This document shows, piece by piece, positions 2,215 through 59,962 of a stretch of DNA of 64,000 nt. The DNA is taken from sequence record OL615013. One strand, given 5' to 3'. The stretch's first letter is position 1. Every line of letters starts with the position of its first letter. Source of the stretch: Shigella phage ChubbyThor. Made by a program: the position numbers and the translations under genes. Under the pieces are notes generated by a model. The model saw nothing but the letters and a program-made list of their open reading frames with translations. It ran no database searches and had not been told where the DNA came from.

Positions 2215-5139
2215 TCAATTTGACATCTGTTTCCAGTCTGAGGAGGTTAAGCCATGTGATTTCCACCAGGAACTCGCACCTGCACTCCAGACTTCCTGTC
2301 CAATAAAACGGGGGGTTACTGTAGCCACAGGCGTAGGACCAGAGACGACAACATACCCATATTTTGCTGGGCCAGTAGCATTGTTCAGTATCGTGTCTTT
2401 GGTAATTCCAGTCGCACCATTAAACCATTCTAGGTCTGTTCCGCTCGCCCCACTAATAAACTCAGGTGAAAACTTAGTGAAACTACAGGCTGCATTTACA
2501 CGTGCGCCGTTGTATGCATTATATCCACTAGCCTGGGTATTAGTCCAACGGCCACCGATCACACTGCCGCCACTACAGCTCAGGAACCAAGCTGCGTATC
2601 TTGCGAACCCTTCCACGTTCACATTAATCAGTTCAAAACCGGAAGCACCATTACACTGAATACCATCGTTGTTTGGGACACCACTCGCGATTTGTGGGTT
2701 AGCAGCATATCCAGTTAAGTTAGCGCCATTAATGTAAATACCAGTACTTGTGTTAGTGCTGAAGAAGATACCGACACCAGAACAGTTCTGAACGCTGAGG
2801 TTGCTAATACGGATACCACGAGCATAATCGAAACTTAAAGCTCGCTCTGCCGCTGAAACAGACCGATAACCAAATCCAATATCACGCAGACGTATATTGC
2901 TCATAGTGATATTGGATGGGTTCATACCCGGTGTCACAACTTCAAAACCTTCAAAGGTGATTCCGTTACCACAGTTGGTGGCTACAACATTATCCACAAC
3001 AATGTCGGCAACGTAGCGTTTGAAACCCATAGCCCCTTGAGCGCAGTCGCGCAACACCAGGTTGGACATTGCGCAGTTACGAGTACCGCCTGCCACACTT
3101 GCAGATAAGTAGATCCCAAGGTCGCGCGTGTTTTCTACATAAAGACCATTCACCCAGCAGTTTTTGGTAGTCGCAAACATCAGACCTGAGTCGGGGGCAT
3201 TCACGAGCTTACAGTTGGTGATAGAGCATCGATTCCCACCGAACGTTAAGATGTCGGCTACAGCATACAATGTGTTGCTTGCTTGGTTTCCGTCTATATA
3301 CAAATCTATTAAATGGGTATCCTGTGCATCAAAGTTCTCGACAAGATAATATGCTTTGGTCGCATCATTACAAACATTATCTGCGAATTTCAACCAGCCG
3401 CCTGCACCCTTAACAATAGTTTTAGAACCAATATGCAGATGCGTGAACACCCAAGGGTCTCCATTTTTGTTTTTGGGTGTGATGCCAATTACGCAATGTC
3501 CGGAAACACTATCCGCATAATCCAATGCTGCCTGTAATGTTTCCTGATCTGTCATTGCGCCGAACATGAAAGCGCGAACATCAATATAGTCTTCAAATTG
3601 AATTTCAAGTTGATTACCGTCCAGGCGGTCAATTAATACCACACCGTCGGCAACTTTACCTGTGTTGGGAACAACTGAATATTTGTTGTAAATACCAGAA
3701 AGAGTTTTGCTGGCCACAATACGCCCGAGCACGGTCTGGTTCGAGTTTAGCGAGTTTCGGTCTCCTAATTCCACAGCAACGCCGCCAATAGACCCAACCC
3801 CCACATTAGACTCTAATAATTCTTGGAAAACGACCAAGCTTTCAGAAGTCGGCAAGAGCAAAGAAACAACAACATTCCCTGGTGCATATGTCAGAGTGCT
3901 CCCACTCACAGATACAACAGAAGAACCTGTCGGGATACCAGAAGGTAAGCTCCAAATCTTTTGCGCCACCACATCATAGATAACAGTCTTTCCGTCCAAT
4001 TTGGTGACAGTATCTGATGACAGAATAACCTGAGAATTTGGAACGTTCATAGAACGCGCCACTTCGTTTGGTGTACGGTCGATCTGGTTGTACAGGGTTG
4101 GGTCGCCATTAATGACGACAACAACTTCATCACCAGCTTCGAGTTCGTCGGCCAGCGTGATGATCTTCGTAACGGAGTCATAAGTGAAGCCCAGACCTTT
4201 TTGCTGGCGGGATCCATCGATAAAGATCTCAGAAACATCTTCGGCATCCACGTCCAACTCGATCTCGGTTTCACCACCCGCAGCTGATCCACTATTGTAG
4301 ATCCAAGTGATAACCGTGCCGCCGCCGGAACCACCGGAGCCATTGCCCAACTGGATCGGGACGTATTGGATGACCTGCAGCTCGGAACCTGATGGGATTG
4401 ATGGACTGAAGTCCACATTGTAACCGTTCAGGGAATACTTTGATTCCAGCAGGCGTTTGCCGTCAACATACACGTCAACGATAGAAGGTTGTGTAGTCAG
4501 CGTTACCTGAGCAGTGTCTGCCGAAACGGTTTCCGTGAAGATGGTACGACTGTAAACGCGCCCCTGACCAAGGCCGACACCAGCAGTAACAATCCAACCA
4601 CGCGCGTCTCCAGACCAGGTAAAGGTCGCAGATACGCTGTCGGTGGAGAGCGTCATAGGCTCTACAGAGCCGTACATTGGGCGACCATTTGGGTCAATGG
4701 TCAGGGGATACAGGGAGAACTTTCCATACAAGTCACAGACTGTAACAGAATCACCCACACGCGTAGGGGAAGGGAACACCACCGTAGAGACGCCTGTGGA
4801 GTTGTCTACCAGATAGCCTCGCCCTTCAGTGAGCGTTGCCGTAGAGGCATGCGGAAGGGCTTCCCAGCGGATACCACCGCCACCCAGCGGCAACCATCCA
4901 CCATTTTCGTAGAAGCCCTCAAATTCGTCGGAGTCGGCATTGTAGCGAACAGAAGACGGGAGACCTGCGTCAGCATTACCCTCAGGTAAAGTCAGGACAG
5001 CATCTGGTCCATGCTCAATCGTACCCGTGTTGAGGATACCAGCCAAAGTAGACTGCTCTTCAGCCACCAGACCGAGAGGGAAAACAGGCTGTGTTGGTTT
5101 ATTAGCCATTTCAAATACCCCTAAATGTGTTCGTTTCAT
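2215..5139 (-). CDS. tailspike / tail fibre protein with N-terminal anchor module, Gly-rich linker and beta-helix domain
   Basis: 974-aa ORF; GSGGSGGG linker; internal segment (TKLDGKTVIYDVVAQKIWSLPSGIP...) homologous to N-terminus of ORF 1..2133; likely true start is the second in-frame ATG at 5109 (SD AGGGG 8 nt upstream, late-promoter-like box at 5141-5153). Confidence 0.55.
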   Translation of the reverse strand: MKRTHLGVFEMANKPTQPVFPLGLVAEEQSTLAGILNTGTIEHGPDAVLTLPEGNADAGLPSSVRYNADSDEFEGFYENGGWLPLGGGGIRWEALPHASTATLTEGRGYLVDNSTGVSTVVFPSPTRVGDSVTVCDLYGKFSLYPLTIDPNGRPMYGSVEPMTLSTDSVSATFTWSGDARGWIVTAGVGLGQGRVYSRTIFTETVSADTAQVTLTTQPSIVDVYVDGKRLLESKYSLNGYNVDFSPSIPSGSELQVIQYVPIQLGNGSGGSGGGTVITWIYNSGSAAGGETEIELDVDAEDVSEIFIDGSRQQKGLGFTYDSVTKIITLADELEAGDEVVVVINGDPTLYNQIDRTPNEVARSMNVPNSQVILSSDTVTKLDGKTVIYDVVAQKIWSLPSGIPTGSSVVSVSGSTLTYAPGNVVVSLLLPTSESLVVFQELLESNVGVGSIGGVAVELGDRNSLNSNQTVLGRIVASKTLSGIYNKYSVVPNTGKVADGVVLIDRLDGNQLEIQFEDYIDVRAFMFGAMTDQETLQAALDYADSVSGHCVIGITPKNKNGDPWVFTHLHIGSKTIVKGAGGWLKFADNVCNDATKAYYLVENFDAQDTHLIDLYIDGNQASNTLYAVADILTFGGNRCSITNCKLVNAPDSGLMFATTKNCWVNGLYVENTRDLGIYLSASVAGGTRNCAMSNLVLRDCAQGAMGFKRYVADIVVDNVVATNCGNGITFEGFEVVTPGMNPSNITMSNIRLRDIGFGYRSVSAAERALSFDYARGIRISNLSVQNCSGVGIFFSTNTSTGIYINGANLTGYAANPQIASGVPNNDGIQCNGASGFELINVNVEGFARYAAWFLSCSGGSVIGGRWTNTQASGYNAYNGARVNAACSFTKFSPEFISGASGTDLEWFNGATGITKDTILNNATGPAKYGYVVVSGPTPVATVTPRFIGQEVWSAGASSWWKSHGLTSSDWKQMSN

Positions 5140-5153
5140 CTAGGGGTATTTAG
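5113..5153 (-). promoter_or_regulatory. late-promoter-like box CTAAATACCCC with SD-sequestering inverted repeat upstream of tailspike gene
   Basis: Minus-strand CTAAATACCCCTA = plus 5141-5153; 11-bp inverted repeat plus 5113-5123 / 5141-5151; 3' arm contains AGGGG SD for ATG 5109. Confidence 0.4.
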
Positions 5154-6375: not shown

Positions 6376-7230
6376 TTAACTCCTTGAACTTTCCAGGAAT
6401 ACGGTAAACCCAGCAGGATGGAAATGCTGACGGAAGACGCGCTCAAACACACCTTCAAAATCAGATACGTCGCCAGGAACTCTTATCACATACGTGAATT
6501 CATCATAGTAGTAATCGTCACGCATTCCTGTCGCGCCGTCACATTCAAAGTTATCGTCCAAACCACCAATTTCTTCCTTGGGGTAATACACACTCACAGG
6601 GCAACCAAAATAAATCCAGAAGAACAATTCAATCGCTTTCTTCGTCCCGCGAATGCGATAAATGTGTTTAAGCAACTTCAACCAGCGGACATGGTCCAGC
6701 GTTCGGCGTTTGGTTCCCTCGACATACACAGAGAGCGTGTCTCCGTCTGAAGTCACCAAACTGTCCGAACCAACTGGCACAAACTTCCCGAACTCCAGGA
6801 AGGTCTTATCAACCGTTCTCTGGAATCCGAAATCAGCATACCAATCGTCGATGCGTTCGTTCTTGTCTTCCATTGAGATTAATGGCCGACCGTCTACATC
6901 CAGCAAATTTTCGAAGTCTAGCGCCATCATGTTCTCAAACGTGCGCGTCAGGAACTTGTCTTCTAAGAAGTCCTTGGCCTCGGTCCCTGGTGTCTTGCGC
7001 TTCTTGATGTCAATCAGCTGCTCAATAGGAGATTGATCCGTATTTCGGTTCACCCAACCATCAGTGTCTGCCAGATACGCCAAAATCTCCTCTTCGGTGA
7101 ATCCCTGCTGGCGATACAGCCAGTTGAAGAACGTGTCCATGAACTCGATGAACACTGGGAATTCATTCTGGTAGAACAATGGGGTTTCATATTTCACCCC
7201 ATTGTGTCCGTTATTGAGATCTTTGGACAT
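6376..7230 (-). CDS. baseplate protein (wedge component, gpI-like position)
   Basis: 284-aa ORF overlapping upstream baseplate gene by 20 nt and abutting tail fibre gene; assignment by gene order only. Confidence 0.35.
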   Translation of the reverse strand: MSKDLNNGHNGVKYETPLFYQNEFPVFIEFMDTFFNWLYRQQGFTEEEILAYLADTDGWVNRNTDQSPIEQLIDIKKRKTPGTEAKDFLEDKFLTRTFENMMALDFENLLDVDGRPLISMEDKNERIDDWYADFGFQRTVDKTFLEFGKFVPVGSDSLVTSDGDTLSVYVEGTKRRTLDHVRWLKLLKHIYRIRGTKKAIELFFWIYFGCPVSVYYPKEEIGGLDDNFECDGATGMRDDYYYDEFTYVIRVPGDVSDFEGVFERVFRQHFHPAGFTVFLESSRS

Positions 7231-8992
7231 AACGCACCTCCGGCTCCACAGTTACAGCACCGATGCGAAGCACCTGGTTTTGTGTGGCCTGAATGTTCTG
7301 GTCAAGACCGTCTGGAGACACGATGATAGTCACTCCCTCGGTGTTGTAGTTGGATACTATGATGCGCTGGAGTTCAACAACGCCATTCACATAATCAACC
7401 GTTCCAACAGCTTGTACCAGATATTCCTTGGTCGTGTCTGCTGTACTCACCTTGTACATATTCAGGACACCACTGACATCGCGCATGTAGTAAGTGAAGT
7501 CGACCTCGGCCGGAAGCGGCTTAAACCCACTGATACGCACAGAACCAGATGCAATCGAGCGCCCATAATCGAACGTGAAGCTGTCTAGTACCCCATAGTC
7601 TGGCTTGAAGTGGCGCTTGTACTTCACGGAAGCGATGTTTGACGCTATCGATCTGTCCATGTCGGTGATGGCCGACTGCAACTGCTCTTTATCGAACAGT
7701 TCGTCGAATCCTTCCAGGTTCCCCAAGCCCCAGTTGACAACACCGTTCTTTACGACTGTCTTCAACTGCTCTTCGGTGTAGGCCGTGGAAGTCGGATCCC
7801 AGAACACGCGGGTGGTGACATCAACATAAGTCAGTTCAGCGTCGACAATCTTGGGTGTGATCGTACCCACATTGTACTTGTCCAAAGTCGCCACGATATC
7901 TGCCTTCTCAGCGTCGGACAGCGTCTCACCAACAGAAGGTACTACAGCAATGTAAACGTATCCAGAGTCGGGCGGAGATAGCGTGTCTCCACCATATGCT
8001 TTGGCGCGGGAGACGTTGGAGAACAGGCGCTCGGTCAACACAGCATAATCGACTTCGGCTACCGCCGCACCCTCAGCCTGATAAGCCAGCGGAGCAAGGC
8101 GCTTGATGTCTTCAATGCTCTCTGGGTCTGTACCGCCAGAAGAACGTTCTGACACCAGTTCAACATCTACAAGGTTGAAGCCCCCGATGGAAGACGCAGA
8201 GGACAAGGCAGTGATGTCATTGCCGTCTGCACCAGAGGTCTCCAGATACTGAAGGTACACGACGTTCCCGTCTTCTACTCGCTTGCAGATATAACCGTCG
8301 CCGAATTCAAACGTGTACATCCCGTCCAACCCCAGCTCAACGAAGTAGAGTTGTGCATACTGGCTCAAATCGAACGGGCTGACATATCGTGAGAAGGTAG
8401 ACCGCACGTCGGAGGTCTCAGATTCCTGCACCTGCACCACCATGTGGTTGATGTCCACGGAAGAAGACGGGATCACATAGGTAGAGATCGCGCTGCCTTC
8501 CACGTCATAGGACTTGTACAGCCAGTTGCCCTGCACGAGTTTGATGTTCTCGAACTTGTAAGAGCCGTCTACAAGAGAGGCGCTCACAGGTTGGTCAACC
8601 GTGAAGTTGTAGGATTTGCCATCCTTCGCTCCAATGAACATCGCCCGGCGGTCCATTACAATCGTATCTGGAGCCGTGCTGGCGTCATATGGAGTGACTG
8701 TGACGTTTGCGTACAGGAACGCCGCCTGGTAGTTGTGAGGGGTGTAAGACAAGAACCCCGCCGCCAGACCAACATTAGAACGCTGTTGAGCAGAGTGAAG
8801 ATGGCTTTCGCCATTCAGCATGTTCTGCATGAACCCGATAGAGTTGGCATCCGAGGCCAAGATACGCACGATTGCACTGAGACCAGAACCTTCAAAGTCA
8901 TAATCCTTGAAAGTTGGATCAGCTTTCATGCGCTTCTTGATAAGATACTCGAAAGCCCTGACATCGAGTGAAGGAACTGTTTGTGTGGCCAT
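7211..8992 (-). CDS. baseplate wedge protein (Baseplate J / T4 gp6-like)
   Basis: ORF track 7211..9007 (598 aa); most plausible start is ATG at 8992 preceded by GGAGA SD; size and position upstream of tail fibre genes; late-promoter-like box upstream. Confidence 0.4.
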   Translation of the reverse strand: MATQTVPSLDVRAFEYLIKKRMKADPTFKDYDFEGSGLSAIVRILASDANSIGFMQNMLNGESHLHSAQQRSNVGLAAGFLSYTPHNYQAAFLYANVTVTPYDASTAPDTIVMDRRAMFIGAKDGKSYNFTVDQPVSASLVDGSYKFENIKLVQGNWLYKSYDVEGSAISTYVIPSSSVDINHMVVQVQESETSDVRSTFSRYVSPFDLSQYAQLYFVELGLDGMYTFEFGDGYICKRVEDGNVVYLQYLETSGADGNDITALSSASSIGGFNLVDVELVSERSSGGTDPESIEDIKRLAPLAYQAEGAAVAEVDYAVLTERLFSNVSRAKAYGGDTLSPPDSGYVYIAVVPSVGETLSDAEKADIVATLDKYNVGTITPKIVDAELTYVDVTTRVFWDPTSTAYTEEQLKTVVKNGVVNWGLGNLEGFDELFDKEQLQSAITDMDRSIASNIASVKYKRHFKPDYGVLDSFTFDYGRSIASGSVRISGFKPLPAEVDFTYYMRDVSGVLNMYKVSTADTTKEYLVQAVGTVDYVNGVVELQRIIVSNYNTEGVTIIVSPDGLDQNIQATQNQVLRIGAVTVEPEVRYVQRSQ

Positions 8993-8995
8993 GTT

Positions 8996-9039
8996 TATCT
9001 CCATCACCTGAACTTGAATATGGTGTTGGAGATATTTAG
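8996..9039 (-). promoter_or_regulatory. late-promoter-like box CTAAATAtCtcc with SD-sequestering inverted repeat upstream of baseplate gene
   Basis: Minus-strand CTAAATA = plus 9033-9039; 7-bp inverted repeat plus 8996-9002 / 9028-9034; 3' arm is the GGAGATA SD of ATG 8992. Confidence 0.4.
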
Positions 9040-9341
9040 TGGGATGGGATTGAAACTTCCTCGCGCGTTATTTTATTATACTATCACTCGCTTCACTGCG
9101 TTCCGCTCGGATAACACCGCCTTGACAGGCAGTCCCATTCCACAGCCATGGAGGCTGCTTTTCGTTGTTCGTTAACACTCACAACTCAAAGGGCACAGCG
9201 ATACGATACAGTCTCTGAGTGGTGTAGAAAAGTAGTTTTTGCCTATTAATAAACCGCGCTCCTATTCGTTGGCCTTTAATTCAATAACACCTTCACCAAT
9301 ATAATAGTGCGGTCAATTAACCATATATTAAGGAACCTCTC

Positions 9342-9914
9342 ATGCACATCAACACTGCTATCACGAAACACATCATTCCTTTGTTAGAGAAATATGAAGG
9401 GAAGAAATCAAAGGATATTTCGTTTGAAGATATATCCGCCGAAGTGAAGCGCTTGACACGTAAAGAAGTCAATTTCCGCCGTGTCCCCCCATCTGCAGTA
9501 GATCGGGCAAAGTCAGATTTGAACACGGCTTCCACTTTCTCCTTTAATATCGATGCCACGGCGACATTGGTATCCGAATTAACGCAGTCGTCACAAGCCC
9601 GTCGCGATCGCTTCCGCCATTTATGTGTGGCCAACGACTATCCTAGCACCCGTGTCGGCATCAAGCTTGAAGCAATCCGCTCCGAGGTGTGCTTCACAGT
9701 GAACTACATCCTGGAGCCTGAAACCAGCAACATTTATTTCGCAGCCATCATCGGCTTCTATGGTACATCCATTAATGGTTGGGCTGAGCGCGTTGAATTA
9801 AAAGAGACTCTGAACAAACACAGCATCCCGTCCACCCATTATATGTCGCTGGCCGCCGCTCGCGAATATGTGTATCTGCTCGAGCGTGATGTGAAGTTAA
9901 AAGTGGTAAAATAA
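9342..9914 (+). CDS. hypothetical protein
   Basis: 190-aa ORF starting with ATG, first plus-strand gene after divergent intergenic region 9008-9341. Confidence 0.5.
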   Translation: MHINTAITKHIIPLLEKYEGKKSKDISFEDISAEVKRLTRKEVNFRRVPPSAVDRAKSDLNTASTFSFNIDATATLVSELTQSSQARRDRFRHLCVANDYPSTRVGIKLEAIRSEVCFTVNYILEPETSNIYFAAIIGFYGTSINGWAERVELKETLNKHSIPSTHYMSLAAAREYVYLLERDVKLKVVK

Positions 9915-9971
9915 CGCTTTATTCAATAAAGAATTGCAGTAAAGTTAGTTGCATGGAAGGGAGGGAACACT

Positions 9972-10118
9972 ATGTTTTACATGATGTTACTCCTCATCCT
10001 CCTGATCGGGATTACCTTTACTCTCCTGGGTCTACCCGATCAGTCCGGTAAACAGTCGCCCACTTCGGCGCATCCGGTTTTGAGTGAAGGTTCGTCCGCA
10101 CTGCTGTGGGCAGTGTAG
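9972..10118 (+). CDS. small hydrophobic peptide (48 aa)
   Basis: ATG at 9972 preceded by GGAGGGAA SD at correct spacing; N-terminal hydrophobic helix MFYMMLLLILLIGITFTLLGL; below ORF-track length cut-off. Confidence 0.3.
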   Translation: MFYMMLLLILLIGITFTLLGLPDQSGKQSPTSAHPVLSEGSSALLWAV

Positions 10119-10119
10119 C

Positions 10120-12170
10120 TCAAAGAGGAGAGGACTTTTCAAATTAGCTGGTCTGCGGTAAAGTATTAAACACGAGGGAAACAGCGCATTGAGTTAGGCA
10201 TCTAAAGCCGACCTCACTAATCCCAGTCTCAGGGGCATGCGTGAATAGAGGCGTAATATCCACCTCGCTGGTGTCAGTGGACGCACTTGACCGTCGGAGA
10301 ACGAAACTCCCTGTTGTAGCGTGATTAGCTCAGAATCAGAGAGCACCCCGTTGGCAAGTCGACACCAACATATAAGGGGAGGTCGGGGGCGCTAATCTCC
10401 ATCACGCCGACAACATTATGAGTCTTCATAGAGGGTTCATAATGTTGCGTCAAAGGGCAACACAAAGGTTCCTGTTGGTTGAATTAACTTGATTCATAGT
10501 TCCTGCTGATCTTCCCGGATTCGAAGGAGCACCAACAGGCGAGGCCGGATGCGTAAGTTCCGGCAAATCGATGGCGAGGTGGTGCATTGGTGACACGGGG
10601 TAGCGCCCAGAAGTGTGGTTCGATTCCACACCCTCGCCAACAAATTAAAGGTTTTGTCAATAACGGGTTGCAGAGTATAGTTAACCCACTGAACGAAAAG
10701 CTGTTTGGGCACTAGACAAACACTTCGATGTGAACCCAGGACATGGCGTCTTGTGCTCAAACAGGTTTTCGTTCTCGTTGCTTGCGGCTTTGCGGGTTTT
10801 AAGAAACAGACCACAAAGATAAATGCAAATGATAACGCTTATCTGGCAGTAGCTTAACAGCTAAAACACCAGTGAGGTCTTCCGACTCCTCATAACAAAA
10901 TTCGGCGCACTAAAAATAGGCGGGAGGGTGTGATTAATAAGCTCCCGCCGACATCTGAGAGGGCACTTGATCGAGGTCGGTATCCGCTATACGGGATGCT
11001 GTAAAATGAATCCACGGAGTGTCCTCCCAGATGTGTCTCACAGCGCATCAGTTTGCAGTTATGCAAGCTTCAATAAGTTAAAACGCGCCTCAGGCGTTAT
11101 GGGATAAAGCCTTAAACAGTGGAATCCCCAGGGCTGGCAATCCCTGTTAAAGAAGTAGCCGTGTGGGGGTCAGCCCCCACAACGCAAAGTAGAGTCCTCT
11201 GGACGTTGAACTTTAACCCAAGGGTTGATTCACATGGTGAACGTTCCCGGCGGCGATAGTACAAGATGAGGGGTCATTGAAGTTCAGAGAACTCTACTTT
11301 GCGGCAGGTACTGCAAAACAGTGATCATCCTGACAAGCGTGATCACTCTTCGACAAAGCATCGCATCGTGGCTATCAACCACATCCTCGCTCTAGTGATG
11401 AGTGGTGTTATGTTCTGTCGGCCAGCCTCGTTTGGTCTGAACGTTAGAGGACAAGTGCTGAAGTGTGACGAAGACACTGAAGTGCGGGTTGTTTGGTGAA
11501 TCCTGCTAAGCGCAAGGGTTGAGTGGCAAAGAAACACCTGAGGGTAAGTCAACGCCATTATTCGCCATGATAATGGCATCGGGAGGCACCCGACGCTAAA
11601 CCGTTTGGCCTGGCGAAAGCAGGCAAGTATCTGGGGTCGATCACCTTGTCCTCTCCCAGGTGCGGGTTGTAGCATGGCTGCAACTCTGATGGCTCTGGGC
11701 ATCCGAATATCAGTTGTGGATGACTAGTGAAAAGAACGTTCAGAGCCATCAGAGTTGTGACCAACCCGATCTTGCAAGCCCGTATCCCGATCTGGTTAAG
11801 ACTTGCAAGTGGAAAGCCCTGGAAAAATAAACGCCTGTTGTGAGGCTACGGTGCAAGCCAATGACCAGCAGAAGCGCGTTGCCGTGAGGCGCACAAAGAG
11901 GCCTGCATGAACTGATCATGCACAAACGGGATAAAGGGTTGACAGTCCTTGGTTGGTTACACAACAGATTAAGGGGCGATAGTTTAAGGGATAGCTGTCC
12001 GGACAGCGAATCCTCATAGAGAACGGCTGGGAGGCCAAACCCAGCAGGTGAGGTGAAAATCCTCAAACCCCGCCAAACATTGTTGGACTGCCAGCAAGCT
12101 CCGGTCTACGGCAGGCGTGATGGGATCGCGGAATTCAAATACCGCCTTGGGAGCACCTAAATAAACCAGT
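10120..12170 (+). ncRNA. ORF-free, hairpin-dense region: candidate large structured non-coding RNA(s)
   Basis: No ORF with plausible composition or RBS on either strand over about 2 kb; many stable stems (e.g. GGCGGGAG/CTCCCGCC near 10920-10950, GTGGGGG/CCCCCAC near 11163-11183, 12-bp long-range pair GCAAAGTAGAGT/ACTCTACTTTGC); strand and boundaries undetermined. Confidence 0.3.
11680..11756. repeat. 17-bp perfect inverted repeat with 43-nt loop
   Basis: caactctgatggctctg (11680-11696) is the exact reverse complement of cagagccatcagagttg (11740-11756). Confidence 0.85.
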
Positions 12171-13694: not shown

Positions 13695-14348
13695 ATGCGT
13701 AATGTTTCTATCTGGGAAAATACTGAAGAATGGGAATTGCAGTCCACCCCAACTATAATCCGTATGTTCCAATACAAAGGCAACAAGCGTACTCTGAACG
13801 AGTTCTTGTCGCCGAATTATATCCATCGCGGCTCCCAGCTCGCTCCGCGTGATCTCAACCAGCCTGGCGAATGCACACCCTTTGATCTCGGCGTGAAGGG
13901 GCAGGTTGTCCTTATGGGTTACTCTAGTATTACCGCCGCCGAAGAGGGCAACGGTCAACCGTTCAAAGTATTCCATACACGCGAACAGGCAATCCATTGG
14001 CTGGTCAAAAACTTCTTCTATTTCTATGGCGATGAAAGCGCAACCCGCCGTTGTCGTAAAGCCGTTTCTATGGACTTCGACGCAGAGAATCGGAAGTACC
14101 AGGCCATGGCTCGCGAGTATGAAAAGAATCTCGTCAAGCCTGTCACTGTGGTTGACAACAAATACGTCGCTGAAGCCCCGCGTCATACAGTGAATATCGT
14201 TCCGGCCTGTGAAACGAAAGCGCCGACACCGCCTACTCCTCCGGTCAGTCGTGTTCTGAATGATCAGGGCGCTCCGGTAAAACAAAAGGCCAAGAAATCG
14301 TCATTTGTGGATAACATGATGAAGTTCCTGCGGTTGTTCGGGAAATAA
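13695..14348 (+). CDS. hypothetical protein
   Basis: 217-aa ORF, ATG start with GAGGAT SD upstream. Confidence 0.5.
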   Translation: MRNVSIWENTEEWELQSTPTIIRMFQYKGNKRTLNEFLSPNYIHRGSQLAPRDLNQPGECTPFDLGVKGQVVLMGYSSITAAEEGNGQPFKVFHTREQAIHWLVKNFFYFYGDESATRRCRKAVSMDFDAENRKYQAMAREYEKNLVKPVTVVDNKYVAEAPRHTVNIVPACETKAPTPPTPPVSRVLNDQGAPVKQKAKKSSFVDNMMKFLRLFGK

Positions 14349-14405
14349 TAGAAGGGGGGGTGTCTCTCTGCAGTAAATAATAGACACCCCTTATGGAGAA
14401 TTACC

Positions 14406-14915
14406 ATGAAAGCATTTTCTGATTTTGTTAACAACCGCCTCCAAGAAATAGACCACCCTCTCATGAAGGGTAAGACACCGCTCACCACACAGGAAATGGT
14501 GAAAACAATCAATGATTACTCTGGCATCCAGTTCAAACATGCGTCCAGCAAACAAGGCGGTTTACAACGACTAGACCACCAAATCGAATTAGGATACAGA
14601 ACAACAGTAGGTGGTAAAACTGTTTCTGTAAACACGTCATTCCGCCCTATCGATCAGGCGACTATAAGAAAGTTGGATCTAGACAAGAATATCACTAGTG
14701 GTATGGATAACACTCACTATGAAAATTCTGAGATCATATTCGAAGTAGGCGGTGATGGTTACTACAAGACAATGAAAGGCAAGAACGACGGAAATACCAA
14801 ATCCATTAATGAACTTAAGAACGAATTAAAAACGGCAGGCAGCGCCCTGAAATCTAGTAAAAACTCGGAAGACCTGGTCGAAAAATTGAAGTCTGCTGGA
14901 TACCAGTCCTTCTAG
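14406..14915 (+). CDS. hypothetical protein (Lys/Asn-rich, lower GC than neighbours)
   Basis: 169-aa ORF, GGAGAA SD 7 nt upstream of ATG; visibly AT-richer codon composition. Confidence 0.5.
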   Translation: MKAFSDFVNNRLQEIDHPLMKGKTPLTTQEMVKTINDYSGIQFKHASSKQGGLQRLDHQIELGYRTTVGGKTVSVNTSFRPIDQATIRKLDLDKNITSGMDNTHYENSEIIFEVGGDGYYKTMKGKNDGNTKSINELKNELKTAGSALKSSKNSEDLVEKLKSAGYQSF

Positions 14916-14950
14916 ATTCAGGAAATAATCTGAGATTCTCCTTTTCTATA

Positions 14951-14990
14951 CTCCTGTAGATACGCTATGATAAGCCAATGTCTACAGGAG
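14951..14990 (+). promoter_or_regulatory. SD-sequestering hairpin in 5' UTR of the PLP-enzyme gene
   Basis: 10-bp inverted repeat CTCCTGTAGA (14951-14960) / TCTACAGGAG (14981-14990); 3' arm contains the AGGAG SD, ATG at 14998. Confidence 0.45.
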
Positions 14991-14997
14991 AAATAGA

Positions 14998-16254
14998 ATG
15001 AACAAATTCGCTGCACAACCCCTCGCTCCATATATTCCGTTTCACACGTTAGGGAAAGGTCCATACAAAACGATTTTTGATGTCCTCTCTCTTCATCGTG
15101 AACATATTCACTGGGAAGACTACCTCTACAAACACACTCCGTGTGAACTCGTCCCCAACCCCGAAACTAACCAGCAGGTCTGGTTCAAGCGTGAAGATTA
15201 CTTCGCGCCGCTATCTTGTTATATGAATGGCAAGCAGGGCATCAACGGCAGCAAACTCCGTCAGGCCATCTGGCTCATGGTTGAGCACCTGAAGGCCGGA
15301 GGCTCCCCTGACATCATCCACGGCACTGTCGTTGGTAGTCCGCAGTCCCCTATGGCGACGGCAGTCTCTCGGCACTTCGGCGGCAAGACAACCACTGTAC
15401 TCGGCGCGACCAAACCCACCACTTGTATGAACCATGATATGGTGGAAATGAGTGCCTGGTTCGGTAGTGAGTTCAACTTCGTCGGCTCCGGCTACAACAG
15501 CACCATCCAACCTCGCTGTAAGAAGCTCATCGAGCAGGTGAATCCAAAGGCGTACTACCTGGAATATGGTATTACCCTGGACCACACAGTGCATTCCCCC
15601 GAGCGCATCGCAGGATTCCATATGCTGGGCGGCGAGCAGGTTGCTAACATCCCTGACCATATCACCGATCTGATCATCCCTGCTGGATCATGCAACTCAT
15701 GCACAAGCATCCTGACCGGGCTGGCGATGCACCCTAAGCCTAATCTGAAGCGTGTTTATCTGATTGGGATTGGACCAAACCGCCTGGACTTCATTGAGAG
15801 CCGCCTGCGCATCATCGGCAAACAGGCCAATCTGCCTCACATTGTCGACTTCACCCGTCGTTATCACGACAACCCAGACTATGTGCACGGCAAGAAGGAG
15901 CTTCAGCATGCCTCTAAGAGCGTTTCGCTGGCTGGCCTCCTAAGTGGTATCAGGCAGAAGGGAGAGCCAGAGGTCGTGCTTCCTCGCTTTGAGGTACACC
16001 ATTGGGATCTTCACACCACCAATTGGGTTCGTTACAATGACCTGATGGATTATCAGTGGGGTGATATCGAACTGCATCCTCGCTATGAAGGCAAGGTCAT
16101 GACCTGGATCCAGCAGAACAAGCCCGAGTTGCTCAATGAGAACACTCTGTTCTGGATCGTGGGAAGTAAACCATACATCGAGCCGATGAAGGCTGCATGC
16201 CCTGAGCTGGCTATCCCAGATGAAGTGAACGTCAACACCTTCACTCCTTCCTGA
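14998..16254 (+). CDS. PLP-dependent enzyme, fold type II (ACC deaminase / D-cysteine desulfhydrase / Trp-synthase-beta-like)
   Basis: 418-aa ORF; segment FKREDY...NGSKLRQAIWLM resembles the KREDx...GGNKxRKLE PLP-lysine region of the ACC-deaminase family. Confidence 0.5.
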   Translation: MNKFAAQPLAPYIPFHTLGKGPYKTIFDVLSLHREHIHWEDYLYKHTPCELVPNPETNQQVWFKREDYFAPLSCYMNGKQGINGSKLRQAIWLMVEHLKAGGSPDIIHGTVVGSPQSPMATAVSRHFGGKTTTVLGATKPTTCMNHDMVEMSAWFGSEFNFVGSGYNSTIQPRCKKLIEQVNPKAYYLEYGITLDHTVHSPERIAGFHMLGGEQVANIPDHITDLIIPAGSCNSCTSILTGLAMHPKPNLKRVYLIGIGPNRLDFIESRLRIIGKQANLPHIVDFTRRYHDNPDYVHGKKELQHASKSVSLAGLLSGIRQKGEPEVVLPRFEVHHWDLHTTNWVRYNDLMDYQWGDIELHPRYEGKVMTWIQQNKPELLNENTLFWIVGSKPYIEPMKAACPELAIPDEVNVNTFTPS

Positions 16255-16260
16255 TCCCTT

Positions 16261-16291
16261 CTAAATACCCCATACAACCCGTGTGGGGTAT
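16261..16291 (+). promoter_or_regulatory. late-promoter-like box CTAAATACCCC whose tail forms a hairpin with the SD of a 31-codon uORF
   Basis: CTAAATACCCC at 16261-16271; 8-bp stem ATACCCCA (16265-16272) / TGGGGTAT (16284-16291); small ORF ATG at 16294. Confidence 0.4.
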
Positions 16292-16360
16292 CTATGAAAC
16301 CTTTCTTGAATATTTCCGTGATATCGTCCTGTACAAACCCGGCCTGGCAGTGCGGGAAGC

Positions 16361-16371
16361 CTAAATACCCC
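16361..16371 (+). promoter_or_regulatory. late-promoter-like box CTAAATACCCC upstream of acidic-protein gene
   Basis: Exact second copy of CTAAATACCCCATA, 29 nt upstream of ATG 16400; GAGGA SD between. Confidence 0.45.
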
Positions 16372-16399
16372 ATATGGCTAACCCACTGAGGAACCCAAC

Positions 16400-21426: not shown

Positions 21427-21479
21427 TTCAATAAACCAAAGGGGGATATAATTCCCCCTGTTAACCCTTTGACAAACAG

Positions 21480-26280: not shown

Positions 26281-26312
26281 TATAAATATCCTCGCCTATA
26301 AAGTGAGGATAT
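26281..26312 (+). promoter_or_regulatory. T4-type late-promoter box TATAAATA whose tail forms an SD-sequestering hairpin
   Basis: TATAAATA at 26281-26288; 8-bp stem ATATCCTC (26286-26293) / GAGGATAT (26305-26312); ATG of small ORF at 26317. Confidence 0.4.
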
Positions 26313-26316
26313 TATC

Positions 26317-26484
26317 ATGTTACAAGATCTGTTGGTCTACGCACTTCCGGGTGTGGTTGTTGGATTCATCGCAGGTGCTCTGGTCTTCCGCAAACACGCG
26401 CAAGACGGTGAAGTGATTGTTCAGAAGGGTAAAGACATCCTGGAACAAATCGAAGCCAAACTGGATGAGCTGAAGAAAAAGTAA
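26317..26484 (+). CDS. small protein (55 aa) with N-terminal hydrophobic helix
   Basis: ATG 26317 with GAGGA SD; below ORF-track cut-off. Confidence 0.3.
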   Translation: MLQDLLVYALPGVVVGFIAGALVFRKHAQDGEVIVQKGKDILEQIEAKLDELKKK

Positions 26485-50728: not shown

Positions 50729-51339
50729 GGCAATAGAAGTCCATCATCCCGCTCCGTTGGGGCGGGTTTAATCTCCTTCCGCATCTGTTCCTTCAGCACC
50801 CTGACGCGTTCGGCATGTCGGCGGTCTTGCATCTCCATATCCCGTTTCTTCTTCGACTTCAGCTCAAACTGTTTGCGGACATCCGGATCTTCACCTGGAA
50901 CAAGATGCTCTTCAGTCCAGATAATGAACTTCCAGTTCTTCTTGGCACACAGTTCACGGGTAGCCTCCCACTTGGCAGAGTTGACCAACCAGGTTCGCAT
51001 CGCATTGTTGAATGTCGACTCCTTCATGTTCGGAGTCTTCTTCGGCTGCTTGATCTGGTCTTTGGGCTTGATCTCAATGAGGGTGACCTGCAGTTCCTCT
51101 TGCCCTTCACGGCGCGTCCAGACCTTGAGGTCCATGAAGTAACGATGGGTGCGCCCGTCGACTGGGGAAATGTAAGGGATTACAGTCTCCTCGCTCGACC
51201 ACTTCACTATCGCGGAGTTCATATCACAGAACTTGAAAGCCACCAACTCCAGCGAAGAGCGGAAGATGATGTTGTTCACATTCCCCTGATACTTCTTGGG
51301 ATTAACCGGGGTGTATTTCCCCTGAAGATAGTTGCTCAT
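50725..51339 (-). CDS. PD-(D/E)xK-fold protein, possibly head-completion (gp4-like) protein
   Basis: 204 aa; FMDLKVW ... LIEIKP D...ExK arrangement; divergent from structural operon. Confidence 0.35.
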   Translation of the reverse strand: MSNYLQGKYTPVNPKKYQGNVNNIIFRSSLELVAFKFCDMNSAIVKWSSEETVIPYISPVDGRTHRYFMDLKVWTRREGQEELQVTLIEIKPKDQIKQPKKTPNMKESTFNNAMRTWLVNSAKWEATRELCAKKNWKFIIWTEEHLVPGEDPDVRKQFELKSKKKRDMEMQDRRHAERVRVLKEQMRKEIKPAPTERDDGLLLP

Positions 51340-51348
51340 AATTTAGTC

Positions 51349-51380
51349 CTAAATAGCCATAACACTCTATCTATTTAAGG
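51349..51380 (+). promoter_or_regulatory. late-promoter-like box CTAAATAG with downstream inverted copy overlapping the SD
   Basis: CTAAATAG 51349-51356; inverted copy CTATTTAAGG 51371-51380; ATG 51390. Confidence 0.35.
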
Positions 51381-58418: not shown

Positions 58419-59849
58419 TCACCCATTATCCGACTCCAACAGGAACACGATGTTTTCGATGTATGCTTTTTGAATCGCATAGACTTCATCCAGCGTGTTG
58501 GCCACTTTCTTGTCAATACGGATTTCCGCAAGGCGTGGCAGGAACAATGACTTCAGCGCATCATCTGTCTTATCCTGTACGCCATTGGAGAGCACTGCGG
58601 CAATCTTGCCAATGTAGTCGCCCTGGTTCTCCCACATCCGGAGCCTCAGCTCATCTGAGATCCCTGAGACGCCAACAACAAGCAAGCCATCGGAAGTCTT
58701 ACACAGCAGGGAGCCAAAGGTCTTGGCGTGTTTGCCCTTCTTGTCGGCTTCGTTGAAACCAACAATTTCAAGGTCACACTCCACTTCCATCTTCAGCTTC
58801 AGACCTTCGGAAGAAGTCCCATCTTCCCACGGCATGTCGGCGGCCTTACAGATCGTGCCTTCTTCTTTACGAGCCAGCGCGTCTTTGAAGTGGTCGACAG
58901 CTTCGGCAAATGAGTGAACAACACGGGTTTCCTGAACCTGAACCAGCCCATCTTCTCCGTGGAACATTTGCATGATCATGTCGAAGCGGGTTTCATACGG
59001 TAGGTCTATGCGCTCGGCGTTGAACCATTTCTCATAAGGCACGACATCCCACACCCGATAGATCACCTGATAACGATCTTCCAGGGGTTCGCCAGTCTGA
59101 ATCACACTGTTGAGTTTGCCGTTACCGACAGCGCGAGGTAGGATAGAATTCGACTTGAGGTCAACAACGAGTAGTTCGCCATGGAACACGCTCTCACCAA
59201 TCCCCGTATCATAGATAATGTCCTTGAACACCAGTGACAGATTGTCAACCGAACCGCCTGCGATAAGGGAACCGGAGCGAGAGCGTATCTCAGGCTCTTT
59301 GTTGTAACGACAGATGATGTTGGCGAACATACCGTCTGACTTCAGCTGGCTGTAGACGCCGCGCTTGAAGTCCATCTTCTTCAGCAGGTCAATCGTCATG
59401 TTGTCATAACGATGATATGGAAGGATGTTGATCAGGCGGCCTGTACCCCCAGCTGCGTTGAATGCAGCGTTGATGCCCTTTTCAGCAATACCCGCCTTGA
59501 TATCACGGTCCAGGATCATCTGGATGAGTTCGTGGTATTGGGGATCCATCTTCAGGGCAACAGAGGCCAACAGGGCATCAGCCTTTTGACCACCGACAAG
59601 GCGCTGCGCCATCTGGTCGAGGACGTCATAGACTTCGCTGATGTCATCAGTCTTCTCACGGACGAGCATGCGAGGATACGCGCTGAGCTTCAACTCAGTC
59701 CGATAGAACGACGTCATTGGGTCATAGACATACTGCAGGAAGTCTACCAAGTCTGGGTTGTTCTTGAATGCTTCGGTCAGCACAGCTTTCTTCGCATTGC
59801 TGCCTTTGGTTTCGCGAAGTCGGTGAACTGTTTCGAGGATAGGGATCAT
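58419..59849 (-). CDS. ATP-dependent DNA ligase (T4 gp30-like)
   Basis: 476 aa; adenylation motif I LKSDGMFANI (KxDG). Confidence 0.85.
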   Translation of the reverse strand: MIPILETVHRLRETKGSNAKKAVLTEAFKNNPDLVDFLQYVYDPMTSFYRTELKLSAYPRMLVREKTDDISEVYDVLDQMAQRLVGGQKADALLASVALKMDPQYHELIQMILDRDIKAGIAEKGINAAFNAAGGTGRLINILPYHRYDNMTIDLLKKMDFKRGVYSQLKSDGMFANIICRYNKEPEIRSRSGSLIAGGSVDNLSLVFKDIIYDTGIGESVFHGELLVVDLKSNSILPRAVGNGKLNSVIQTGEPLEDRYQVIYRVWDVVPYEKWFNAERIDLPYETRFDMIMQMFHGEDGLVQVQETRVVHSFAEAVDHFKDALARKEEGTICKAADMPWEDGTSSEGLKLKMEVECDLEIVGFNEADKKGKHAKTFGSLLCKTSDGLLVVGVSGISDELRLRMWENQGDYIGKIAAVLSNGVQDKTDDALKSLFLPRLAEIRIDKKVANTLDEVYAIQKAYIENIVFLLESDNG

Positions 59850-59962
59850 GTGGTGTCTCCAGGGTTATATGTGCTGCTATTATAACCCTGGCGACTTCAA
59901 TAGATTATTGGCGGGTGCGGGATCTTGCCTGGCTGACGATGAGGTCAGTATGTAGTCCTCAG

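Follow-up and report, generated by a model that had tools for sequence, protein, structure and literature searches.

A late promoter box with an anti-Shine-Dalgarno tail: a candidate RNA lock on the baseplate gene gp6 of Shigella phage ChubbyThor

We analysed 64,000 nucleotides (nt) of DNA from Shigella phage ChubbyThor (sequence record OL615013). This whole stretch is called the window below. The subject is the leader of gp6, which encodes a baseplate wedge protein. Here, the C-rich tail of a late promoter box is complementary to the Shine-Dalgarno (SD) sequence of the same gene. We consider it probable (about 0.6) that box and hairpin form an RNA lock of the type known for gene e of phage T4, tying gp6 translation to the gene's own late promoter. 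As a proposal made from sequence, the lock is well supported: by sequence statistics, by covariation among paralogous and orthologous sites, and by T4 gene e as a positive control.

Briefly, CTAAATA at 9039–9033 would be a T4-type late promoter for the gp6 operon, presumably recognised by a gp55-like sigma factor. The final two bases of the box, the next six and a few upstream bases are predicted to pair with the gp6 SD and partly with AUG. Hence, RNA begun upstream of the box would fold shut: a hairpin in three parts (about −16 to −19 kcal/mol) would bury the ribosome-binding site. RNA from the late promoter would start about 6 nt past the box, near 9027. Such RNA would be without the 5′ arm, hold GGAG in a loop and be translatable. 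The element would then be a cis-acting lock, with gp6 translation dependent on its own late promoter.

The gp6 leader and its predicted folds

Read directly on the minus strand, TATCTCC (9034–9028) is followed 25 nt later by GGAGATA (9002–8996), and ATG occupies 8992–8990. The distance from GGAG to ATG is 6 nt. A first-pass annotation of the window had described this pair of repeats and assigned the second to the SD of ATG 8992. Direct reading and a repeat finder returned the same coordinates throughout, and a longer repeat than described. Perfect complementarity spans 8 bp, TATCTCCA (9034–9027) with TGGAGATA (9003–8996). As RNA, the 5′ arm is UAUCUCCA (9027–9034, minus strand), an anti-SD sequence made of the final 2 nt of the box and a 6-nt C/T-rich tail; it was identified by reading, folding and the repeat finder. 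The 3′ arm, UGGAGAUA (8996–9003, minus strand), contains the SD GGAG (9002–8999) and was recovered by reading, folding and the repeat finder.

The pairing does not end with this stem. After a 1×1 A/A mismatch there are 4 extra bp, CACC (9025–9022) with GGTG (9008–9005). Folding and the repeat finder both place this inner helix, CACC with GGUG in RNA, on the minus strand. The CACC strand is conserved in relatives and would be kept by the predicted late transcript. In all, the repeat finder reported arms of 13 nt that are 92% complementary, with 13 nt between them. Folding adds an outer helix on the same strand. Its 5′ strand, CCA (9042–9040; GGCUA or AGCUA in relatives), lies upstream of the box and overlaps it. 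Its 3′ strand, UGG (8991–8989), comprises bases 2 and 3 of AUG and the first base of codon 2. Hence, the start codon would be partly buried too.

Predicted folding differs sharply between long and short leaders. In the 96-nt long leader, the hairpin is both the minimum free energy and the centroid structure (−19 kcal/mol, z = −2.1), and only 5 of 200 shuffled sequences folded as well. A leader beginning at 9027 folds weakly (−8.2 kcal/mol, z = −0.6) with GGAG in a loop. By partition function, the probability of an unpaired SD rises from 0.00 for the long leader to 0.74 for the short leader. The first-pass annotation had suggested that short RNA lacks the arm while read-through RNA hides the SD; for a start with T4 geometry, the predicted values agree. 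Shuffling only the 10 nt of box end and tail raised the mean unpaired probability from 0.00 to 0.29, and no shuffle reached the low observed value. An Rfam scan of 8900–9400 found no match.

The box itself (9033–9039, minus strand) is a T4-type, −10-like element and an instance of the family motif CTAAATAcCcc. The EspM4VN paper cites two regulatory motifs for Viunalikevirus/Ackermannviridae phages, and this is one of them (PMC7283392). The genome paper of phage AG3, using a search with T4 TATAAATA, had already listed a putative late promoter before gp6, Porf217 (PMC3121705). Hence, the first-pass call of a late promoter has independent precedent. In the window, CTAAATA is not over-represented (6 occurrences against 3.4 expected). 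All six have a co-oriented start codon no more than 45 nt downstream. The genes behind them include gp6, the tail spike and the tail-tube cap, and TTAAATA precedes the head-closure gene. Among relatives, the gp6 box and everything 3′ of it are conserved, whereas sequence 5′ of the box is not and offers no conserved −35 element. The annotation of AG3, which is 98% identical, includes homologues of gp55, gp33 and gp45 (orf122, orf076 and orf165), at loci outside the window.

The T4 late box occupies −13 to −6 (PMC2988020). By analogy, the gp6 late start would fall at about 9027, where the 5′ arm ends. Therefore, the late transcript would lack this arm. Across hairpin sites, perfect 5′ arms end 5–7 nt past the box, beside the T4-type start position; weaker predicted pairing extends up to about 12 nt further. 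The predicted late 5′ untranslated region of gp6 (9011–9027, minus strand) begins AACACCAUAUUCAA and hardly varies across genera; Serratia phage KNP4 (Miltonvirus; gp6 66% identical) still has AACACCAU. By contrast, sequence upstream of the gp6 box diverges.

In a megablast search with 7000–11000, Shigella phages Gloob and AG3 (Ackermannviridae, Agtrevirus) were 98% identical, and about 280 Ackermannviridae genomes gave weaker matches. The gp6 gene (7211–8992, minus strand; 593 amino acids) is the first of a minus-strand late operon, followed on the same strand by more baseplate, tail-fibre and tail-spike genes. It heads its own operon at a 350-bp divergent junction, because the upstream neighbour (9342–9914; phrog_3788) is on the plus strand. 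Public annotations disagree on the start, with GTG 9007 in Gloob (598 amino acids) and ATG 8992 in AG3 (593 amino acids). The position of the SD and conservation in relatives favour ATG 8992. An alternative in-frame ATG at 9004 is ACG in relatives L007 and L018.

Recurrence at other late boxes

The gp6 arrangement is not isolated. At least 8 bp of perfect complementarity of box and tail to the gene's own SD zone occurs at 4 of the 11 TAAATA sites that precede start codons in the window. The stems are 11 bp at 5152, 8 at 9038, 8 at 16262 and 9 at 26283. When boxes were paired with the SDs of other genes, at most 0.9% of pairs reached 8 bp, and none of 20,000 permutations matched the observed own-SD count (p < 5e-5). 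In 64 kb, lone inverted repeats of 8 bp are common; the configuration of box tail and own SD is not. This excess of complementarity is a directly computed result. Site by site, the tails CCCCUA, UCUCCA, CCCCA and UCCUC are matched by the SDs UAGGGG, UGGAGA, UGGGG and GAGGA. All of the 3′ arms run on into UAU(UU), the complement of the box's invariant end.

The longest of these window stems precedes the tail-spike gene (ATG 5109; element at 5113–5153, minus strand). Its box lies at 5153–5147, and AAAUACCCCUA (5151–5141) pairs with UAGGGGUAUUU (5123–5113). Across relatives, the arms at this site are invariant and the loop is variable; those of KNP4 are ATACCCCTAAT and ATTAGGGGTAT. A plus-strand site at 16261–16296 has its box at 16261–16267, with AUACCCCA (16265–16272) pairing with UGGGGUAU (16284–16291) ahead of ATG 16294. 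At the remaining site (26281–26319, plus strand), the box is TATAAATA (26281–26288) and AAUAUCCUC (26285–26293) pairs with GAGGAUAUU (26305–26313) before ATG 26317. Upstream gene order allows transcripts to cross into the genes at 5109, 16294 and 26317.

Behind the 16261–16291 hairpin is a 31-codon remnant (16294–16392, plus strand). Kuttervirus and other relatives have a full-length gene (MKTFLEFYRES...) behind this leader. Because relatives keep that gene, a deletion in this phage appears to have orphaned the regulatory cassette. The open reading frame (ORF) at 26317–26484 (plus strand; phrog_3879) encodes 55 amino acids with a hydrophobic N-terminal half, behind a perfect TATAAATA box and a 9-bp lock. 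It was missed by our crude ORF caller, and is absent at this position in some relatives.

The first-pass annotation had proposed a genome-wide search for the motif. For this, gene starts were taken from our own crude ORF caller, so that the percentages given are approximate, and a gene counted as box-associated if a late box lay within 75 nt. In the AG3-like genome, the SD was fully paired for 7 of 22 box genes (32%) and for 6 of 108 others (5.6%; Fisher p = 0.0014). In KNP4, it was so for 8 of 22 box genes and 4 of 102 others (p = 9e-5). Further AG3 sites are those of the endolysin (12 bp, one U-G), a RuvC-like resolvase (13 bp), a tail spike (10 bp), orf174 (12 bp) and the neck protein gp14 (8 bp, one U-G). 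Conversely, the late boxes of the sheath gene gp18, prohead core gp22, hub gp5, orf206 and orf207 are without the design. Hence, the claim that this is a general design holds in part. It recurs and is enriched, at about one-third of boxes, and several structural genes do without it.

Between the two genomes, arms change on both sides and pairing is kept. The endolysin arms are AAATACCTtCGC/GCGgAGGTATTT in AG3 and ACCCTCTG/CAGAGGGT in KNP4, an exchange of ACCUUCGC/GCGGAGGU for ACCCUCUG/CAGAGGGU. Those of the resolvase are TAAATAGCCCATA/TATGGGCTATTTA in AG3 and AAATACCCGTAAC/GTTACGGGTATTT in KNP4; here, GCCCAUA/UAUGGGC is replaced by CCCGUAAC/GUUACGGG. At orf174, CCAU/AUGG in AG3 becomes UCAC/GUGG in KNP4. 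It is thus a computed observation that two divergent Ackermannviridae genomes carry the design at about one-third of their late boxes, with compensatory arm changes between them.

The same sites bear on a quite unlikely alternative. In this, the lock would act mainly on late polycistronic or processed mRNAs, to set stoichiometry, to couple translation to upstream ribosomes or to form an RNase III-type site. The tail-spike box is 9 nt past the stop codon of orf214, an upstream late gene, where the long RNA would itself be late, and some stems are as long as 12–16 bp. Conversely, stems are short for RNase III, and a ribosome terminating 9–13 nt upstream would barely touch the 5′ arm. Genes for replication and nucleotide metabolism cluster around the endolysin and resolvase sites, as they do around T4 e and 49. 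In addition, gp6 is first in its operon and would be left unexplained.

Orthologues of gp6 favour the T4 e-type lock. In all 13 distinct enterobacterial orthologues, the SD has an unpaired probability of 0.00 in the long leader and 0.41–0.75 in the short one. As computed, SD accessibility clearly differs between the two leader lengths. The KNP4 arms, AGCUCUAA/UUGGAGUU, still pair. In the outer helix, one pair is GC in four orthologues, AU in three and GU in one. Its two members are the synonymous site of codon 2 and the base 2 nt upstream of the box. Position 22–50 alternates between C-G and U-G. Vibrio phages K447 and YC, with the box CTAAGTA, have unpaired probabilities of 0.21–0.26 (long) and 0.65–0.88 (short), and pair the SD via different box-adjacent bases. 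The tail shuffle is not significant for these two phages, and hence their pairing is suggestive only.

We calibrated the pipeline on T4. For gene e, it returned the arms AATACCTTCTA/TAGGAGGTATT and unpaired SD probabilities of 0.0 (long leader) and 0.5 (short leader). Genome-wide and by the same metric, the SD is fully paired for 9 of 25 T4 box genes (36%) and 8 of 96 others (8%; p = 0.0014). Hence, SD masking at T4 late boxes is as enriched as here, and the possibility that the design is far more general in ChubbyThor and its relatives than in T4 was ruled out. Because the pipeline recovers gene e and finds similar enrichment in T4, the sites described are probably new members of a known T4 e-type mechanism, and not a departure from T4. 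In T4, the genes with masked SDs in 5′-extended leaders exceed the textbook e, soc, 49 and I-TevI, and include the gp53/gp4 and gp51/gp26 divergent junctions. This suggests that SD masking in 5′-extended leaders at T4 late promoters is wider than the textbook cases.

T4 e, soc, 49 and I-TevI are documented cases of the mechanism; there, the ribosome-binding site is hidden in RNAs from upstream promoters and free in RNAs from internal late promoters (PMC3014915). T4 soc, gene 49, I-TevI/II/III and segB belong to the same class, as does Aeh1 mobE. The parallel with T4 e drawn by the first-pass annotation is exact. In both phages, the late box and its pyrimidine-rich tail supply the 5′ arm, and the SD plus UAU(U) supplies the 3′ arm. 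The layouts are TATAAATACCTTCTA...TAGGAGGTATT-ATG in T4 e, TAAATACCTTCGC...GCGGAGGTATTT in the AG3 endolysin and TAAATATCTCCA...TGGAGATA in gp6; the T4 e arms are almost those of the AG3 endolysin. The design is also carried, in AG3 and KNP4, by both the endolysin and the RuvC-like resolvase, a functional analogue of T4 gp49. There are differences. T4 e is a late gene embedded in an early unit; its early transcripts with the arm are known, and repression was measured at about 100-fold. The gp6 lock is a proposal from sequence, and gp6 is a structural gene heading an operon. The SD partner also differs. In T4, it is upstream of the box at 10 of 30 sites and in the box or tail at 4 of 30. The box tail itself is the more frequent partner in the Ackermannviridae genomes (7 of 20 and 7 of 25 sites).

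A different solution occurs in phage Mu. The SD and AUG of the late gene mom are sequestered in a leader hairpin, which is opened when the protein Com binds the mRNA. At gp6, the hairpin is instead proposed to be bypassed through promoter choice.

Two divergent junctions inform the nature of the inverted repeats. At 51349–51379, two divergent late boxes, TAAATAG and CTATTTA, are mutual reverse complements, and each abuts the SD of the opposite gene. These genes encode the tail-tube cap (51390, plus strand) and head closure (51339, minus strand). The AG3 gp2/gp54 junction has the same layout. In both of these 50-nt junctions, the two boxes are the only candidate promoters, and they lie about 32–34 nt before the start codons, the spacing expected of a −10 element. 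The repeats could, in principle, be DNA-level elements, such as a protein-binding palindrome, a cruciform or back-to-back promoter boxes, and at these two junctions they truly are two divergent boxes. As a general account, this is highly improbable. Loop length varies from 5 to 25 nt across sites, the other 3′ arms are not intact boxes on the opposite strand, and the G-U and U-G pairs in several stems would be mismatches in DNA. Moreover, the 3′ arm coincides with the SD at every site. We separately considered the 3′ arms as antisense late promoters, and ruled this out except at the two divergent junctions. Intrinsic termination by the hairpins was also ruled out, as no unpaired U-tract follows the stems.

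It is also improbable that the box is not, or not only, a promoter, with the hairpin residing in mature late mRNA, where it would stabilise the 5′ end or serve as a translational operator that a phage factor must open, as Com does for Mu mom. The late starts are predictions, several predicted short leaders keep a poorly accessible SD and AG3 encodes a RegA-like translational repressor. Conversely, the box is similar to T4 TATAAATA, genes for gp55 and gp33 are present, and perfect 5′ arms stop at the T4-type start position. The T4 e leader, for which start sites are mapped, shares the architecture. Finally, at 51339/51390 and AG3 gp2/gp54, nothing apart from the boxes is a candidate promoter.

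Hairpins that sequester an SD also occur without a late box. At 14938–14997 (plus strand), CTCCTGTAGA and TCTACAGGAG form 10 bp before the gene at 14998. At 59850–59905 (minus strand), CCAGGGTTATA and TATAACCCTGG form 11 bp before a DNA ligase-like gene at 59849. In both, a sigma-70 −10-like hexamer (TATGAT and TATAAT, respectively) falls within the loop or at its edge. Possibly, the logic of a promoter inside a lock extends to other promoter classes. Elsewhere, between genes 13695–14348 and 14406–14915, a GC-rich hairpin at 14355–14395 (plus strand; GGGGTGTCT...AGACACCCC, then TTAT) has a TAAATA box within its loop. This may be a terminator with a late promoter in its loop.

A hypothetical upstream RNA and the gp6 intergenic region

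Several observations weigh against the lock. No co-directional gene lies upstream of gp6, the nearest gene being divergent, and a consensus scan of 9040–9340 found no sigma-70-type promoter on the gp6 strand. Hence, the RNA that the lock would target is hypothetical at gp6. Most gp6 relatives have a C to U change in the 5′ arm, giving a weakening U-G pair. Covariation in the gp6 leader is thin, because the sequence from box to ATG is highly conserved; there are two double-change pairs, one of which is an alignment artefact of the KNP4 group. When sense and antisense folding energies are compared, the sense strand has no consistent advantage. The SD of the predicted short leader is still poorly accessible (0.03–0.27) at several of the other hairpin sites. 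The searchable literature yielded no transcriptome, start-site, translation or expression data for Ackermannviridae. For this reason, we infer from sequence the key steps of the lock, namely that 5′-extended gp6 transcripts exist and that the hairpin blocks 30S binding. The read-through proposed by the first-pass annotation stands in one part. The long leader is predicted to sequester the SD, but no source for such RNA is evident at this divergent junction.

Some of these observations also suit an unlikely alternative, in which the gp6 complementarity is an evolutionary by-product. No RNA would start upstream and the hairpin would never form; the TCTCC tail and GGAGA SD would be complementary by nature, with flanking pairs due to chance. 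The divergent junction, the promoter scan and the U-G pair of most relatives fit this account. So does the complementarity of CTCC and GGAG, which is inherent to anti-SD and SD sequences. Furthermore, the whole leader is conserved, so that stem conservation alone is no evidence of pairing. Conversely, tail shuffles never reproduce the full SD pairing, and the family-wide enrichment lowers the likelihood that gp6 is a single exception. KNP4 pairs with different arms, as do K447 and YC more weakly and without significance in the shuffle. The outer helix, formed by bases preceding the box, covaries with the synonymous site of codon 2 (GC, GU, AU), which would be selectable only via RNA started upstream. 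Hence, for the T4 e-type lock, the apparent selection on pre-box bases argues that RNAs starting upstream of the gp6 box exist.

A possible origin for these RNAs lies further upstream. A non-coding block of about 160 nt (approximately 9095–9255) has matches in 273 Ackermannviridae records, and the best match is 90–95% identical in 193 of them. In most records, the 4-kb region around gp6 is only 60–80% identical; the coding DNA beside the block is less conserved than the block itself. Annotations of the block are very rare, and Rfam gives no match. We found three hairpins with compensatory changes. Relatives of the block share the motif GAGCGAAGCGA(A/G)T, with hairpins that are partly different. 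In AG3, copies are located upstream of gp6, gp5 (L085, 15800–15960) and gp45 (L086, 15140–15400). In KNP4, they occur upstream of gp6 and gp5 and at a third site. Wherever the downstream gene was identified, the block is co-oriented with it. Its predicted fold is somewhat more stable in the gp6 sense (−47.9 kcal/mol) than on the opposite strand (−41.5 kcal/mol), and either may be the strand in use. In Kuttervirus, a terminator-like hairpin in the gp6 sense lies between block and box. Non-coding RNA, long leader and origin-like module are candidate identities for the block. That it gives rise to 5′-extended gp6 transcripts is speculation.

The intergenic region has other features. A tRNA scan found nothing. 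On the plus strand, a sigma-70-like promoter, TTGAAA-18-TATTAT (10 of 12 matches; 9050–9079), adjoins the gp6 late box, which is on the opposite strand. About 65 nt past it is a terminator-like hairpin, CAGCCATGGAGGCTG then CTTTTCGTTG (9143–9167, plus strand). Hence, the two could delimit a plus-strand RNA of about 80 nt. Conservation of this promoter does not extend to other genera. A family early-type motif, TTCAAT-N14-TATAAT (at most 2 mismatches), occurs 21 times in the window against 3.9 expected. A perfect copy at 9280–9305 (plus strand) faces the plus-strand gene 9342–9914, and another site is at 21427–21452 (plus strand). Several copies contain AAAGGGG stretches that resemble overlapping stem-loops.

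The C-run of the family motif

The first-pass annotation had suggested a dual role for the C-run of the box, with the C-rich tail as an anti-SD arm. At gp6, the tail contributes to 8 bp of pairing with the SD. More broadly, C-rich tails are concentrated in the hairpin class. The mean number of C residues in the 5-nt tail is 2.83 for this class and 1.54 for other boxes (p = 0.003), and this association is directly computed. Tails without a hairpin include AT-rich ones of the T4 kind, for example before the KNP4 sheath, tube and capsid-sized ORFs, and a few CCCCA tails. Because C-rich tails are concentrated in this way, the "cCcc" of the published consensus would largely reflect the anti-SD arm of one subclass. 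In the literature that we searched, the family motif is reported as a motif only, no account links its C-run to a downstream SD, and the hairpin is nowhere described for Ackermannviridae. The modest new insight is that, judged by sequence, the C-run of the family motif is an anti-SD arm.

A stronger version is doubtful. In this, the Ackermannviridae C-run would be no promoter determinant at all, and would instead be the anti-SD half of a genome-wide lock tying translation to each gene's own late promoter. The lock at gp6 would guard against transcripts from the 9095–9255 block. This block would be an unrecognised transcription unit, either a non-coding RNA or a module of origin or primer type, and the related copies before gp5 and gp45 would belong with it.

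The T4 e-type lock would extend a classic post-transcriptional device of T4 to another family, of large myoviruses widely used in biocontrol and therapy. It would also give a functional reading to a C-run that has been repeated through the literature unexplained. If the lock is real, an engineering rule follows. Silencing should result when a tail-spike or lysis gene is moved without its box and tail, or keeps an intact 5′ arm when set behind a foreign promoter.

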